Source: Cyanobacteriota bacterium (GTDB lineage: Bacteria; Cyanobacteriota; Cyanobacteriia; Thermostichales; Thermostichaceae). From it: a stretch of DNA of 64,000 bases. The notes beneath the pieces were generated by a model. That model saw only the letters and a program-made list of their open reading frames with translations, was not told the origin of the DNA and searched no databases. How positions within the stretch are numbered: the first letter of the stretch is position 1; every line of letters starts with the position of its first letter. This document shows, piece by piece, positions 39,969-46,628 of this stretch. Location of the stretch: positions 32,001 to 96,000 of the forward strand of contig JANRIL010000044.1 in NCBI GenBank assembly GCA_033764955.1, in the 5' to 3' direction. A program made the translations under genes and the position numbers.

Positions 39969-40029
39969 GATTTTTCATGAGGAACAGAATTAGTTCAACA
40001 GAAAAGATGATTAGTGTGTATGGAAAGAG

Positions 40030-41829
40030 CTAGGGATCCCTGGCCGTCAGGGAGGAAATGTGACGGCGTTGTGGATCCCCCGTGGGGATGGCCGCCAGCA
40101 GTTGCCGCGTATACTCCCGTTGGGGATCCCGATACAGTTGATCAGCAGGGGCGATTTCTTCCAGACGGCCTCGGTTCATCACCAAAATCCGGTCACTCAT
40201 AAACTGCACCACACTCAAATCATGGGAGATAAACAAATAGGTCAAGTCCAGATCGGTTTGTAGCTGTTTGAGAAGATTGAGCACCTGTGCCTGCACCGAG
40301 ACATCGAGGGAGGATACGGCCTCATCACAAATCAGCAGGCGGGGCTGACTGGCTAAGGCACGGGCAATACAGATCCGTTGCCGCTGCCCTCCCGAAAATT
40401 CATGGGGCATCCGCGACAATGCTTGGGGATCCAAGCCCACCTTGATAAACAACTCCTCTGCCCGTTGCCGACGCACCATGGAATTGTCCCCGAGCCGATG
40501 CAAAATCATCGGCTCCAGCACACTCTCCCCCACCGTCAGGCGCGGATCGAGAGCGGCTGTCGGATCTTGAAACACTAACTGGATCTCGCGCCGCCGCTGC
40601 CGCAAGCGTTGGCGAGACAGCGCCAGCCAATCCTCCCCGTCGTAGCGAATGGATCCCGCCGTAGCTTGAGTCAGTCGCAAAATGGTTCGCCCTAGGGTGC
40701 TTTTCCCGGATCCCGACTCCCCCACCACTCCTAAGGTTTCCCCCGGATATATCTGAAAACTGATATCGTCCACGGCGCGAATGTCCCCAATCCTTTGCCG
40801 CCATACCCCCCGCATCGGGAAATGCACCTGCAAGCCCTCAACCTGGAGGAGGGGAGGACGTGATTGCAGCCGTTGCAGACGAATGGACATTTCTCCGCTA
40901 CTCACTTCCAGCAAAGGGAGGGGTTGGAGAGGGATAGATGAGGTCGGCATCTCTAGCTGACCATCCTGCCGCCGCATCGTCCTGACCCAATCCTCGGTGG
41001 TGGGTAGGCGGTGCAGGCGGCGACCCAAAACCGGACGACAGGCTAACAATCCTTGGGTATAGGGATGTTGGGGATGAGCAAAGACGCTGGATATGGGAGC
41101 CGCTTCCACTTTTTTGCCTCCGTACATCACCAGCACCTGATCCGCTAGTTCAGCCACCACCCCCCAGTCATGGCTAATCAACAAAATCGACATCTGGCGC
41201 TGTTCTTGCAACTGGCGCAATAATTTGAGAATCTCTGCTTGAATGGTCACATCCAGGGCAGTTGTCGGTTCATCGGCAATCAATAAACAGGGGTCACAGG
41301 CAATAGCACAGGCAATGGCCACCCGCTGCCGTTGTCCTCCCGACAATTGATGGGGATAACGCCGCAAAAGGGCACTCGGTAATTGCACTTCTGCAAACAA
41401 GTCTGCTGCCCGTTGTTCTGCCTCGCGCTGATTCATCGACAAATGGGTACGAAGAGTCTCTTGTAACTGATAGCCACAGCTATAGACAGGGTTGAGGCTT
41501 TGACCCGGATCCTGAAACACCATCCCCACCTGCCGTCCGCGATAGGTTTGCTTGGGGCGGGCTGAGCTATCTAACAAATTCACCCGGTTTCCTTGGGGGG
41601 GAGTTAACCAGGCGGATCCACTCACTATCGCTGGGGTTGGGGTCAGCCCCATCAAAGCCAACGCTGTCATGGTTTTGCCGGATCCCGACTCCCCGACAAT
41701 GCCGAGGGTCTCTCCCACCTTCAGGTCAAAGCCGATGCCATCCACCACGGACACCCGTTGCTGCCCTTGGGGAATTGTCACAACCAAGTCTTTCACCTGC
41801 AAAAGAGGGGGGGCTGAGGGCTGGGTCAT
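40030..41829 (-). CDS. Peptide/nickel ABC transporter ATP-binding protein (double NBD)
   Basis: Two GESGSGK Walker A motifs, [20 protein letters not shown]. Confidence 0.93.
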
Positions 41830-41908
41830 CCGATCACAGAAATAGGTAGGCTATCGTTAGGCGCGATTATAGGACAAACCGGATCCCGACTCTAGCCCAC
41901 AACCCTTG

Positions 41909-41990
41909 GCGGATCGACCAATCTCACCGGACGCAAATAACCTTTGCAACTCAGCCGATCAGCTTGGGGCGGTGCAGCGACTTGTTATTA
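41909..41990 (-). mobile_element. Integron attC site (R' replaced by chromosomal G|ATCCGC)
   Basis: Minus strand TAATAAC-AAGTC-GCTGCACC-[central region]-GGTGAGA-TTGGTC-G|ATCCGC: R'' AAC, 5-nt spacer, 8-nt L'' with extrahelical G pairing 6/7 with L', 6-nt spacer. Confidence 0.72.
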
Positions 41991-42047
41991 TGTGTCGTGT
42001 ATCGGCTTTTGAGTTGCGCTGATTCGTAACCATCTAAAGGGCTGCTT

Positions 42048-42695
42048 TCAAACTTGAAGCCAATTTCGTAAAATATTAACCACTACTGGAGCGAAAGGCT
42101 CCAATTGTCCCTGTTGAGGTTGTGTTAGCTCGTCAATCAACAATGCTAGAACTTCTTTATCTCCTTCCAGTCCTTGGTTTGGATCTCCATAACACTTCCA
42201 TAACAACACGTTGGATAATTGTTTGCGTTTCTCGATCAAAGAACGGTTATTGTTCTCATGGTCGCCCAAGTTTAAGACTTGAATGGTATCGATTGCCCGA
42301 TTACTCAACCCCTCAACCCGACCACTAATTTTAAATCGCAGTTCTGTTTTACATTCCGTCATCAGAGGAGTTAGGGGTAGGTGCTGCGATTTATGAGCAT
42401 CGCCACATTGATTATGGGTATTACAACTAGCCACAATATTTAAAAAGTCGAGCGTGCGTTTAGGATTCAGTTTTTGAGCTTCTACATGCTCATTATGGCA
42501 ATCATCAATGTCTTGGATTCGCTGGCAGCAATAGGCACAAAGGTAAAACTGCTCCTTGAGAGCATAGTCTCGAATCGTTGCACGAAGGACTTTCCCCTCT
42601 TCTGTTTTGTCTAGGTCATCGTATACGCCATGAGGGTTCTTCTTCTTCCAAGTTGTCAAACAAGACGGTTCAGCCCCTTTACTAATGGTTCGCAT
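42048..42695 (-). CDS. ptuB: HNH endonuclease PtuB (Septu / retron-Ec78-effector type)
   Basis: EQFYLCAYC, HNEH, NIVASC, CGDAH, LNL..LIEKRK; overlaps the ATPase stop. Confidence 0.85.
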   Translation of the reverse strand: MRTISKGAEPSCLTTWKKKNPHGVYDDLDKTEEGKVLRATIRDYALKEQFYLCAYCCQRIQDIDDCHNEHVEAQKLNPKRTLDFLNIVASCNTHNQCGDAHKSQHLPLTPLMTECKTELRFKISGRVEGLSNRAIDTIQVLNLGDHENNNRSLIEKRKQLSNVLLWKCYGDPNQGLEGDKEVLALLIDELTQPQQGQLEPFAPVVVNILRNWLQV

Positions 42696-44046
42696 GACGT
42701 AATTTTTGTTTACAGAGCAATAATTTAGCTTTGACCAATTCGAGATGATTGGCAGGTAGTTCCTCGGTTAATCTGGCAAGCAATTGTTGAGCCTCCGTTA
42801 GCTTTGAATCCTGTATGGCATCTAGTAAATCATTTAGTTCAGTATCAATTTTCTCGTTACGGATGCTAGTATCCATGACATCTAATAAAACCGTATTAGC
42901 ATCTTGTCCATACTGGGAAGGCAATTGTCGCAACTTACCATCAGCTAAGGAGTAAACCAAAACATTTTTACAGTCGCTGATTATCAGAGGTGAATGGGTC
43001 GTCAGTACAAACTGACAATTTGGGAAAGTTGCAATCAAGCGATCGCACAGGCTTCGTTGCCAAGAGGGATGTAGATGCAAATCAACTTCATCAATCAAAA
43101 CGATACCATCACCTGCTAAAGGATTTTCTAGAGCAGGATTCAGCATGGCTAGACGGCGGGCAATATCACCAACAAGAGCCATTAGTGACTTTTCGCCTTG
43201 TGAAAGTTGGGCTACGTTCAGGGGTTTACCATTTTTGTCAATTGCCATGTAAAGACGAGGTTTACGATGGACTCTAAGATTGTTTATATGGGGCATAAAC
43301 TGGCTAATAGCGGTGCGAACGGCGGTTAACTGCCGATCTTTATTATTGCGTTCGTTTAACAATCGCCATACATCTTGATTAGTTTCAGCTAGTGGTCTTA
43401 GTTGGTTCAGAACCTCTTCAGGAATTCCTGATTCATTTTCGGTATCTTCCCGCTCTCGGAACCATTCAAAAAAGCGACGAAAGTCAACGCCCTGACTTAA
43501 GGAATTATCGTAACCATCCAATTGCAAAAAGGTATGCTTAGTCCTAATTTTTAGTGGAATATCGAGGACGACACGCTCGACAGGGTAAAACGCAATTAGG
43601 GGCAAGCTAGTTTTGTCATTATGAGTGAGTGCATCACGATAACGATTGGCTAAGCGAGTGCAGTTGTTTAGGATGCTACTATATTGAGCCCTTCGCCCTT
43701 TTCTGTTTTTTGCAAGAGTCCATTTGAAATAATGATCGATCTCGCTTTGATTGGAATTGTTCAACAATCCAGAGGAGTCACAAATTTCTATTTCAATGCT
43801 GGCCGCATTGGCAGTGTTGAGTATGGCATCTTCAGGAATAGGGTTACCACTGCCTTTTTCTGTACGTAAACGAGCAGTAAACCAGCTAAGAGAGGTTGCT
43901 AAGGCTTTCAGTACAGAGGTTTTACCAGCGCCGTTATTACCAACAAAGACAGTAATATTGCTGGGGTTTCGCTCAGTGGGCGCTAAGGGAATTTCCAGAC
44001 TTTTAAACAGCCCAATATTATTTAAGATGATCCGTTGGATTTCCAT
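42682..44046 (-). CDS. ptuA: AAA/ABC-type ATPase PtuA (Septu)
   Basis: GNNGAGKT, FFEWFRERED, LSQGEK, LIDEVDLHLHPSWQ, TTHSP, YGQDAN. Confidence 0.88.
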   Translation of the reverse strand: MEIQRIILNNIGLFKSLEIPLAPTERNPSNITVFVGNNGAGKTSVLKALATSLSWFTARLRTEKGSGNPIPEDAILNTANAASIEIEICDSSGLLNNSNQSEIDHYFKWTLAKNRKGRRAQYSSILNNCTRLANRYRDALTHNDKTSLPLIAFYPVERVVLDIPLKIRTKHTFLQLDGYDNSLSQGVDFRRFFEWFREREDTENESGIPEEVLNQLRPLAETNQDVWRLLNERNNKDRQLTAVRTAISQFMPHINNLRVHRKPRLYMAIDKNGKPLNVAQLSQGEKSLMALVGDIARRLAMLNPALENPLAGDGIVLIDEVDLHLHPSWQRSLCDRLIATFPNCQFVLTTHSPLIISDCKNVLVYSLADGKLRQLPSQYGQDANTVLLDVMDTSIRNEKIDTELNDLLDAIQDSKLTEAQQLLARLTEELPANHLELVKAKLLLCKQKLRHANH

Positions 44047-44112
44047 AGGGGTAAAGTTCAAACCTCTGAGGTCTCTGATGTTTGGGTAGTGGTAAAAAGG
44101 AAAAGACTTAAG

Positions 44113-44163
44113 AGGGGTCGTAGGTGCATTGCCCTTATATGGGGGCGAGGCCCCCAAACCCCC
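44113..44163. repeat. REP-like palindromic element
   Basis: GGGGT-C-GTAG-GTGCATTGCCCTTAT-AT-GGGGGCGAGGCCCCC-AA-ACCCC: two hairpins in an outer stem with a GTAG tetranucleotide, GC-rich in AT-rich DNA. Confidence 0.5.
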
Positions 44164-44463
44164 AACCAACTCCCATCCTTACTCTTTTAGAACTACCGAT
44201 GTTTGTAGTAATACGGTTGATTTACTTAAAAGTGAAAAAACAAAGCCTCTATAACAAGGGTTTTTTCAGGCCAGATTGTCTCACCCTTATCCAAATCAAC
44301 CATATCTCAAATATTTGAAGGCACTTACCCTTAATCATGCGCTCAAAATGGTTGCTCGGAACTAGTTTTATCTTAATTCATGATGAGGGGAACCACAGAT
44401 ACATAACTAGATGCTCCCCTGCTTGCCAGCAAAATGCTGCTCGCCCATAGTGGGGTTTTGCTA

Positions 44464-44775
44464 TTAAGCCGATGATTCTTCAGACTCGGCTTCTAGCTCC
44501 GCCTGCAACGCCTGCCATGCCTCTGGGGTGAGGGTGTTCAAGGCTTCCTGTAACTGTTCTTTTTCGTAAACCTGCTTTTGGTGGTGAAAGGTCATGTGAC
44601 CGGAGGTGACTCGTGTCAGGTAATGGAGTACCCAGCCGAGACACCCCAACAAAAGGATCCCACTACTCCAGGCTTGAGCTGAGGATCCCCAACCCAAGGC
44701 TTGCATCGCCCCATAGAGGGATCCCCCTGCCAGCAGGAGATAACCACCCCAGAGTAAAACGTCCTTCCTACGCAT
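44464..44775 (-). CDS. DUF3007 family membrane protein
   Basis: MRR-x-DV, GW..YL-x-RV..MTF..Q...YE, LQAELE; downstream of ndhB. Confidence 0.8.
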   Translation of the reverse strand: MRRKDVLLWGGYLLLAGGSLYGAMQALGWGSSAQAWSSGILLLGCLGWVLHYLTRVTSGHMTFHHQKQVYEKEQLQEALNTLTPEAWQALQAELEAESEESSA

Positions 44776-44803
44776 GATAGTGAGAATCCTTAAAACATTT
44801 CCG

Positions 44804-46378
44804 CTAGCTGAGGGTGGGTGGGATCCGATCGGCTGGAGGGAGTGTCTCGGTCAAGTTTCCCATGACAGCGGCGGGGGAAATCCGCAAAAAGGGACTGGCT
44901 TCAATCGAGGTGGTGGTGATGTTGAATAGAGGATTGGAGAGGATCCCGACCACAATCGTTCCCACGAGCGTGACCAGCATTCCCGTCTGGATCAGTCTCA
45001 TGCCATCCAACGTCCAATCCACATCGGGATAGTTTTGCACAGAGCTAGACATTTCCTGGGGTTCTTTGACCACCATCGTCTTGATCACCCGCACATAGTA
45101 ATAGATGGAAATCACACTGGTGACCAAGCCCACCAAGACCAGCGTATAGGCTCCTGCCTGCCAGCCCGACCAAAACAGATACAGCTTGCCGAAGAAGCCC
45201 GCCAAGGGAGGTAATCCACCCAAGGAGAGCATACACAAGCTCAGGCAAAGGGTGAGGAAGGGATCCTTTTGGTAGAGTCCGCTATATTCCGTGATTTCAT
45301 CGGTTCCGGTCTGCAAGCTGAAGAGGGTGACGCACAAAAACGCCCCTAAATTCATCACCAAATAGACGAATAGATAGAAAATTAGGCTGGCGTATCCGGC
45401 CTCGCTGCCAATCACTAAGCCGATCATGGCAAACCCCGCCTGCCCAATCGAGGAATAAGCCAACAGCCGCTTCATACGGGTTTGGGCGATTGCCACCACA
45501 TTGCCCAAAACCATACTCAAAATGGCTAGCACCGCAAATACCGTCTGCCATTGCTCACTCATGGTGGCAAAGGTGGTCAACAGAAAGCGAATCGCCAGGG
45601 CAAATCCCGCCGCTTTGGATCCCACCGACAAAAAAGCCACAACCGGAGTGGGTGCCCCTTCATACACATCGGGCGTCCATTGGTGAAAAGGAACCGCCGC
45701 CAGCTTAAAGCAAATCCCCGCAATGCACAGCACCAAGGCAATAATACCCGCCAACCCCGCTTGGGAGAGGGTGGGAGCAATCGCCTCTAGGTTGGTTTCT
45801 CCCCCCGATAAGCCGTAGAGTAAGGACATGCCGTAGAGAAAAATCGCGGTGCTGCTGGCTCCGATCAACAAATATTTGAGGGCTGCTTCCGAGGAGCGGG
45901 GATCCCGTTTCATATAGCCCGCCATCAGGTAACTGGCAATTCCCAACGTTTCCAGCGCCACAAATACCATGATCAAATCGGTTGCCCCCGCCAGCAACAT
46001 GCCCCCCAGGGTGGCGGTGAGCAGCAGGACATAAAACTCTGCCGTTGGGGATCCCGCCAAAAAGACGTACCGCTCTGACATCATCACCGTCAAAATCGCC
46101 GTCAAAACCACCAAACCTCGAAACAAAATGCTGACGGGATCCGCCGAAAAGCTCCCGAAAAACCCTGACATATCGGGATGCTGCCACTGCAAGACCAGGG
46201 TCACCAAGGCTCCGATCAACCCAATAATCGCCAGCCCCGCCAAGGATTGACGACGTTGACCAGTCCCCAGCAAATCCACAATCAAAACAATCATCAAGGT
46301 GAGGGTGACCACCGTTTCAGGAATAATCGTGCCCGCATTTAGATTTTGGAGGTTTTGGGTTAGGGAGAATACATCCAT
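44804..46378 (-). CDS. ndhB: NAD(P)H-quinone oxidoreductase subunit 2 (NuoN homologue)
   Basis: [42 protein letters not shown]. Confidence 0.97.
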
Positions 46379-46628
46379 AAGGATTTGACCGACACGGTGA
46401 ATCTAGGGTGCGTCTTCACGCTAAAGCTTTTTTGCCCAAGAGACAAGTTCAAAGGTAAGGGCTGCTCATTAAGCAGCACTACGAAAGCGGATTTGTCCTG
46501 TTGCTGCTCTGGCCAGTCAGCCATATTTCAGTCTTTCCCGCAAAAGATCTGGCGGTTTTGGCCTCTGGAATCGTCAAAGGTATTGAGTAGGATGAATAGC
46601 AATCAATGGTTATTGTGGGGAAAGAGCG

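Follow-up and report, generated by a model that had tools for sequence, protein, structure and literature searches.

A 2,492-bp block carrying the anti-phage gene pair ptuAB (Septu) in a genome of the cyanobacterial family Thermostichaceae is, in all likelihood, a single integron cassette that an integron integrase inserted at an ordinary chromosomal GAT site. The block occupies 41915..44406 on the minus strand of a 64,000-nucleotide (nt) stretch of contig JANRIL010000044.1 (assembly GCA_033764955.1, positions 32,001 to 96,000), which we call the window and whose numbering is used for all coordinates that carry no contig name. Its ends coincide with the homology limits of orthologous cassettes in other cyanobacteria, the first base being a T at 44406 and the last being the terminal G of an attC site at 41915. 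A preliminary description of this DNA, made from the letters and open reading frames, had proposed a lone ptuAB cassette at 41909..44407; its left limit (44407|44406) stands, and the exact span is corrected here to 41915-44406.

The assignment of the two genes to Septu, already made in that description, is borne out by profile searches. The ptuA gene (42682..44046, minus strand) encodes a 454-amino-acid (aa) ABC/SMC-type ATPase that matches PADLOC model PDLC00271 (1.6e-164, model positions 1-419 of 421) as well as the Pfam families AAA_21, AAA_15, and AAA_23, and its translation contains Walker A (GNNGAGKT), signature (LSQGEKS), and Walker B (VLIDEVD) motifs. Overlapping it by 14 nt, ptuB (42048..42695, minus strand) encodes the 215-aa HNH nuclease partner, an open frame with a CHNEH motif that matches PDLC00344 (4e-94, model positions 1-212 of 213); a Pfam search of the PtuB protein gave no match. 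The block stands out by composition, with a G+C content of 0.40-0.46 (about 42% overall) across ~41.95-44.45 kb compared to 0.52-0.60 in the flanks. Also as first described, it lacks two abundant repeats, GGATCC (11,709 copies in 3.8 Mb, or 3.08 per kb) and GGGATCCC (4,915 copies genome-wide), both of which are absent from 41887-44654; GGGATCC is found at 41881, 28 nt from the right junction, in flank of native G+C content. The block contains no transposase or other recombinase and no direct or inverted terminal repeats, and an Rfam scan of 41000-45500 returned nothing relevant.

Comparison with orthologous cassettes places both ends to the base. BLASTN aligned the block to the cassette at locus L063 over 44408-44306 (77% over 111 nt, E 1.4e-13) and again over 44083-41923. 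On the left, similarity to L063, L058, and L057 opens exactly at T[T/G]ATGT (alignments A3 and A5), and the window reads CATCTAG|TTATGT at 44407|44406, with unrelated, native DNA preceding the junction. TTATGT is preceded in L058 by the G that closes a 78-bit attC site (...GCGAACG|TTATGT) and in L074 by the G of a half site belonging to the same attC subfamily as the window's (...ACTTGGTCG|TTATGT, the half site ending in TTGGTCG). The right junction is ...TTGGTCG|ATCCGCC at 41915|41914; the attC sites of the window and L063 align up to this G, after which L063 continues with TTATGCC and the window with ATCCGCC. Ungapped identity to L063 is 22/30 inside versus 10/30 outside the left junction and 22/30 inside versus 8/30 outside the right one, and across orthologues the left junction separates 12-22/30 inside from 7-10/30 outside. 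A G thus precedes the crossover at both junctions, and the crossover after G postulated in the preliminary description is fixed at both ends by orthologous cassettes (L058, L074, and L063).

What flanks these crossovers permits a reconstruction of the target. Its left half is CATCTAG (44407..44413, minus strand), which ends in the crossover G at 44407 and over which identity to the orthologues' upstream sequence is already low; its right half is ATCCGCC (41908..41914, minus strand), located where arrays have TTRRRY and where homology to L063 stops after the G. From these halves we infer that the empty site would have read CATCTAG|ATCCGCC (in longer form GGGGAGCATCTAG|ATCCGCCAAGGG, also given as CATCTAGATCCGCC), and its GAT triplet agrees with the 5'-GWT-3' consensus given for attG sites (bioRxiv 10.1101/2022.09.11.507474). 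Another candidate for the left junction, GTGG|TTCCCC at 44393, which would put the target in a GGATCC repeat, was rejected because orthologue homology starts 14 nt further upstream. A palindrome at the reconstructed target, ATCTAGAT, was left unused; it is off-centre to the crossover and is missing in the C42 case described below.

The right end of the cassette is a decayed attC site (41915..41991; all its elements are on the minus strand), recognized by BLASTN to attC sites of the same genome, by a covariance model of that family (R1), and by alignment with the L063 cassette. Its R'' box, TAATAAC (41990-41984), starts 57 nt past the ptuB stop and is separated by an AAGTC spacer from L'' (GCTGCACCG, 41978-41970); L' (CCGGTGA, 41930-41924), a second spacer (GATTGGTC, 41923-41916), and the crossover G (41915) complete it. 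The elements listed in the preliminary description, including the left G|TTATGT, are all present, and the order of boxes is that of an attC; the full layout that it described has proved to be degenerate. Over its full length the site aligns with the attC of the L063 ptuAB cassette, relative to which it has a 5-nt deletion that removes the inner L'' arm, including a bulged A that is invariant in 41 of 41 family sites. Its R', GATCCGC, is altered from the family form, and the L063 comparison derives the TAA duplication in R'' from an ancestral ACATAAC. In the orthologues, R'' is still ACATAAC, the exact complement of GTTATGT, which implies a circular cassette with a 7-bp R box and bears out the match of the left end near R'' on the plus strand that had been noticed earlier. 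Homology to attC, proposed before on layout, is recovered by BLASTN of the 85-nt stretch after ptuB against the genome's own sites (77.6% identity over 85 nt to one on contig C30, E 1.4e-9; E 7e-7 for one on C7). R1 scores the site at 17.7 bits (E 0.06 over 64 kb and 0.006 over 6.5 kb with filters off), and it is the only R1 match at E <= 0.1 in the window and the sole one in the 6.5 kb with filters off, as expected for a lone cassette. No other attC, attI, or intI remnant was detected within that 6.5 kb, and the intI matches were all on other contigs. The earlier statement that no integrase is present is therefore correct for the window and does not extend to the genome.

Two full-length intI genes, at C9:19-960 (minus strand) and C38:63588-64529 (plus strand), score 463 and 451 bits against TIGR02249 (cut-off 265), a cut-off reached by none of 14 control genomes; intI fragments are present on C36, C4, and C30 and at 182.6 kb on C38. 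Each full-length gene lies divergently beside an attC array (C9:2534-8473 and C38:53304-61840), which is the canonical arrangement. The attC family shares a layout of CTAAC, spacer, TGCAGCGGA, variable middle, TCCGCTGA, spacer, and CGTTA. An alignment of 41 of the genome's attC sites (A1), from which the window site was excluded, was the source of R1; RNAalifold found compensatory changes in 10 of 11 pairs of the L stem, and a hand-checked 19-pair structure fits most of the 41 sequences. The 5' arm carries two conserved single-base bulges, a G and the invariant A. Over the whole genome R1 recovered 80 sites at E <= 0.01, with scores of 29.6-94 bits. On the bottom strand, the one that recombines, these coding-strand bulges become C and T. 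The extrahelical bases of class 1 and Vibrio attC sites are G and T, and this difference may mark a distinct integrase-attC recognition variant.

Orthologous cassettes are present in other cyanobacteria. A PtuA scan of species-representative genomes yielded 80 loci, and the nearest PtuA proteins (74-88% aa identity) are all cyanobacterial, from Coleofasciculus (88% identical to the window PtuA), Microcystis, Microcoleus, Limnothrix, Arthrospira, and others; within this clade, identity is 60-88% among cyanobacteria and 59-67% to proteobacterial homologues. A strong attC (35-87 bits with R1) directly follows ptuB in seven of the 80 loci (L057, L058, L060, L063, L067, L088, and L099). The genomic settings of these cassettes vary. 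In L058, ptuAB is part of an array (attC, ptuAB, attC, a DUF6985 gene, attC). At L063 a further small cassette comes after it, and this pair of cassettes occupies the space from cbiJ to cbiD. In L057, L060, L067, and L088 a single attC was found within the 4-kb flanks, and among the neighbours are recG, mdh, and genes for an ABC transporter and an FNR-like protein. The core genes bordering the cassette in other cyanobacteria differ from one genome to the next (cbiJ|cbiD, recG, mdh). One related locus, L051 in a Coleofasciculus metagenome-assembled genome (88-3560), encodes a PtuA 88% identical to that of the window, followed by a 530-aa open reading frame that is not ptuB and then a 55-bit attC; this may represent a partner swap in the same cassette frame.

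A number of observations weigh against insertion of the block as a cassette, and we consider them together here and in the following paragraph. The 17.7 bits of the window attC lie below all 80 listed genome sites, a low score that we attribute to the 5-nt L'' deletion, the TAA duplication in R'', and the changed R'. Its bottom-strand minimum-energy fold is not attC-like (-8.0 kcal/mol, z +0.77), and the attC of the joined excised circle forms R and L boxes at an energy indistinct from that of shuffled sequences (-7.3 kcal/mol versus -7.6 +/- 2.3); of the model match and bottom-strand fold anticipated in the preliminary description, a homologue was recovered at a low score, and today's bottom strand does not fold in the expected way. 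The genuine attC sites of L032 and L063 likewise fold weakly or differently, which makes minimum-energy folding non-discriminating. We read the non-folding as decay after insertion, because the orthologous L063 attC is intact (60.5 bits), and to judge from its sequence the window site is a real but eroded attC. The empty site is also missing from available relatives. The two genes flanking the cassette, which encode a DUF3007 protein and a double ABC (ATP-binding cassette) ATPase, are never adjacent in 30 relatives, where they are on separate contigs or far apart, and the nearest genomes belong to other genera. Only ptuAB in genomes G004 and G005 and short pieces of ABC genes were matched when the DNA of 41400-45000 was compared to the relatives. 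Among metagenome contigs, a collection that may lack records close to this genome, a scan for the DUF3007 protein gave 285 pattern matches of which none was confirmed, and a 24-nt pattern from the right flank gave no match. Sequencing runs were searched with 40000-46400 as well, and none matched. Finally, the cassettes of L057 (3851) and L063 (3850) begin with G|TGATGT, not G|TTATGT. The right junction of L057 is similarly G|TG (CCG|TGAGATG), and the standard G|TT crossover fails to account for G|TG.

The remaining points against this reading bear on three other explanations, each of which we consider improbable. The cassette could be all that remains of an array or integron once present here, its neighbours and integrase having been deleted and its GAT being a mutated GTT; small attC clusters and intI fragments are plentiful in this genome and the window attC is visibly decayed, but the flanks are native up to the crossover bases (in G+C content and in the GGGATCC 28 nt away, with the terminator-like hairpin of a core gene bordering the cassette on its left side and the start of another core gene on its right), the surrounding 6.5 kb has no trace of an attI, a further attC, or intI, and the deletions would have needed exact crossover endpoints on both sides. 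In addition, each of the five GAT junctions of the genome belongs to a single site and the clusters have none, and we regard a former array as unlikely. Entry without an integrase, by illegitimate or homologous recombination after transformation or with another mobile element, would leave the attC as a passenger. The ptuAB pairs of G004 and G005 (79% and 76% nt identity), the nearest carriers taxonomically, are located between yet other core genes and have no attC after ptuB, indicating that the gene pair also travels or persists attC-free; moreover, intI at E <= 1e-30 was found in only one of the five other genomes with attC cassettes, genomes whose completeness was not given, leaving four that show none. 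Entry of this kind is nevertheless very unlikely to explain the window, where the ends match to the base the crossover positions of real attC sites (L058, L074, and L063), both junctions have G at the crossover, and the block lacks the terminal repeats, transposase, or other recombinase of another element. The junctions are read from assembly data alone, and in a metagenome-style assembly of 48 contigs that is 89% complete, with frequent attC repeats, a cassette from elsewhere might have been joined to this locus by mistake. That this happened here is hardly credible given that the left junction holds no repeat, the window attC is at most 78% identical to any other copy, and core genes lie to either side of the cassette in a contig of 105,943 bp.

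Taken as an integron cassette inserted at a chromosomal GAT site, the locus would have the following history. A circular cassette composed of ptuA-ptuB, a leader of 150 nt, and an attC with R'' ACATAAC and R' G|TTATGT would have been inserted by an integron integrase into double-stranded CATCTAG|ATCCGCC, an attG-type GAT site in the 141-bp spacer from the DUF3007 gene to the ABC ATPase gene. Crossover after the G of both partners would have produced CATCTAG|TTATGT and TTGGTCG|ATCCGCC, and pairing of the R box would have been lost in the hybrid site on the right. Later, the attC would have decayed through the 5-nt deletion and TAA duplication, and a miniature inverted-repeat transposable element (MITE) and a further 130 nt would have entered the leader. 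The cassette is probably fixed in place, because the R box is unpairable and the attC decayed. The intact ptuA and ptuB would be predicted to act as a type I Septu system, in which a PtuA ATPase oligomer holds the PtuB HNH nuclease, which cuts DNA on infection, and the conserved leader might drive their expression, as might read-through out of DUF3007, whose gene has the same orientation.

The leader itself consists of two conserved parts, all on the minus strand. The first (44306..44406) is common to the orthologous cassettes (alignments A3 and A5), and the second (44047..44084) extends to the ptuA start codon; for most of the 80 loci, 44083-44084 is where homology returns. Between them the window has an extra 217 nt (44085-44301) relative to the orthologues. 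An 87-nt MITE-like insertion (44215..44301) with terminal inverted repeats GGTTGATTT / AAATCAACC makes up one part of this; it has three further copies in the genome (C28:98094-98192, C17:1869-1931, and C38:182524-182627) and is absent in the orthologous leaders. The other part is a segment of 130 nt (44085..44214) with the hairpin GGGGGCCTCGCCCCC, which is also absent in the orthologous leaders (A5) and for which BLASTN found no second copy in the genome. One of the MITE-like copies abuts a truncated intI fragment (C38:182627-182934). Across genera the leader is strongly conserved, with a core of GTTTTGAG.GCATAATAGGGGTAAGTGCCTTCAAAT and a possible hairpin (L049, L057, L058, L060, L063, L068, and L102), and this conservation suggests a cassette-borne promoter or regulatory RNA. 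A promoter scan found 5 promoter-like sites compared to 5.5 +/- 2.4 in shuffled sequences; the minus-strand leader had no such site, so that leader conservation is the argument for an internal promoter.

The cassette genes share the orientation of their neighbours, the order on the minus strand over 40-46.4 kb being an NdhB-like gene (44804-46378), the DUF3007 gene (44464..44775; Pfam PF11460, 4.8e-25), ptuA, ptuB, and the double ABC ATPase gene (40030..41829; Pfam ABC_tran, 7.3e-63). Both immediate neighbours are core genes: DUF3007, 56 nt upstream of the left junction, is present in 31 of 31 genomes searched, and the ABC ATPase, which begins 85 nt past the right junction, has orthologues in 30 of the 31.

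Single attC sites are frequent in this genome. An iterated nhmmer profile that included the window site (E <= 1e-3) identified 82 attC-like sites, adding to the two integrases the wider attC complement for which the preliminary description had suggested a search, and at a spacing of <= 4 kb these form 54 clusters: 40 singles, 7 pairs, 5 triplets, one cluster of 6, and one of 7, the latter two adjoining the integrases. With about 80 attC sites over some 30 contigs, the cassette complement is unusually dispersed. Among the 76 sites that reach the R' column, R' starts with GTT in 61, GAT in 5, GGT in 3, CTT in 3, ATT in 2, and GCT in 2; GAT is found at 5 of 35 singles versus 0 of 41 clustered sites (Fisher one-sided p about 0.018). 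Three of the five GAT sites read GATCC, compared to 18.8% of all GAT triplets in the genome. Upstream of those on C42 and C28, beside a core gene, is an AT-rich, GGATCC-poor block whose left end is plausibly G|TTA.

The C42 block (C42:17030-19750; L040), which follows a core gene, has a G|ATCCCC junction and, as its candidate left end, CTTG|TTAGCTG; its 2.7 kb are AT-rich and free of GGATCC. It encodes, on the strand opposite to the attC, an AAA_21 ATPase (PADLOC HEC-01A, 1.3e-70) and a DUF4276 protein (HEC-01B). The other single G|AT sites are at C28:79099-80463 (L041), C36:55218-55306, and C27:28758-28847, with GATAACA, GATCCTG, and GATAGAT, respectively. Cupin and SnoaL-like genes are found in the C28 block, for which the reconstructed target would be the palindrome TTATCGATAA. 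Immediately after six or seven attC or attC-like sites there is a conserved motif of ~25 nt, G|TTATCGAATTGATGACAGACC, that gives way to unrelated native DNA (C4:15563, C11:33782, C27:18911, C27:112540, C38:64786, C23:45262, and C7:103487), and one copy is just downstream of the C38 intI. This motif could be a preferred landing sequence, a distal attI-like half, or the start of a tiny conserved cassette.

We tentatively raise a broader possibility, in which our doubt somewhat exceeds our belief, that cassettes enter the chromosome in this genome, and perhaps in cyanobacteria generally, mainly by insertion at ordinary GWT sites and not at attI, so that they would behave as integrase-dependent, transposon-like elements and the Septu cassette would be a self-contained, pan-cyanobacterial defence module dispersed in this way. 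What leads us to this view is that two intI genes in 3.8 Mb are accompanied by 40 single sites and 12 small clusters of 2-3 sites, that the five G|AT junctions all belong to single sites, that at least two lone cassettes carry defence genes (Septu and the AAA_21/DUF4276 pair on C42), and that in at least six other cyanobacteria the Septu cassette is bordered by different core genes, mostly with no detectable integrase. Whatever its cause, the genome-wide pattern of single attC sites may merit separate study.

The ptuAB locus provides a base-resolved natural instance of a known insertion route, in which both the cargo and the host group are new, from a phylum in which integrons have been little studied. 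In the part of the literature surveyed, few natural cases appear to allow both junctions, the R' box of the circular cassette, and the target triplet to be read directly. The aftermath of insertion is visible as well, in an eroding attC, a leader invaded by small repeats, and defence genes that remain intact, as predicted for 'domestication'. Moreover, the orthologues form a series in which the cassette is part of an array (L058), paired (L063), or alone (the window, L057, L060, L067, and L088), a series suited to tests of attC x attG recombination with a nonproteobacterial integrase.

Several of these features have counterparts in published work. Insertion at attG sites has been described as a crossover after the G of 5'-GWT-3', with evidence from assays of IntI1, IntI2, and IntI3 in Escherichia coli and Vibrio cholerae; the same report counted single attC sites lacking an integron integrase (SALINs) in RefSeq, found one SALIN only in 1,847 of 2,469 SALIN-bearing genomes, and predicted attC loss or 'domestication' for cassettes inserted in the genome (bioRxiv 10.1101/2022.09.11.507474). 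Like the attG insertions and SALINs described there, the ptuAB cassette is a lone attC cassette outside an integron, with crossover after the G of GAT and flanks unlike attI or attC, and the decay of its attC is in line with the prediction made for them. It differs from the attG work in being a natural event, known here from sequence alone, in a cyanobacterium with its own attC family, and the 40 single sites of this genome set it apart from the majority in the SALIN survey. Integrons have been reported before in Cyanobacteria (PMC4889954, PMC8618304), and the anatomy of attC as described elsewhere comprises an R box, an L box, an unpaired spacer, and two to three extrahelical bases, with bottom-strand cleavage at AAC (PMC11641012).

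Among papers judged by title or abstract, we found none linking Septu to attC sites. Type I Septu was first described in Bacillus, and sedentary chromosomal integrons are viewed as biobanks of defence systems. The window's ptuAB belongs with type I Septu as a matter of sequence membership only, through its overlapping genes, full-length PADLOC matches to PtuA1 and PtuB1, and intact ATPase and HNH motifs. Phage defence systems have been reported in mobile integrons (bioRxiv 10.1101/2024.07.02.601719), and like those integron-borne systems, the Septu block is a complete system packaged as one cassette with its own attC. Unlike the defence genes described from arrays of Proteobacteria, it is a two-gene system in a cassette of 2.3-2.5 kb that stands alone at cyanobacterial chromosomal sites.

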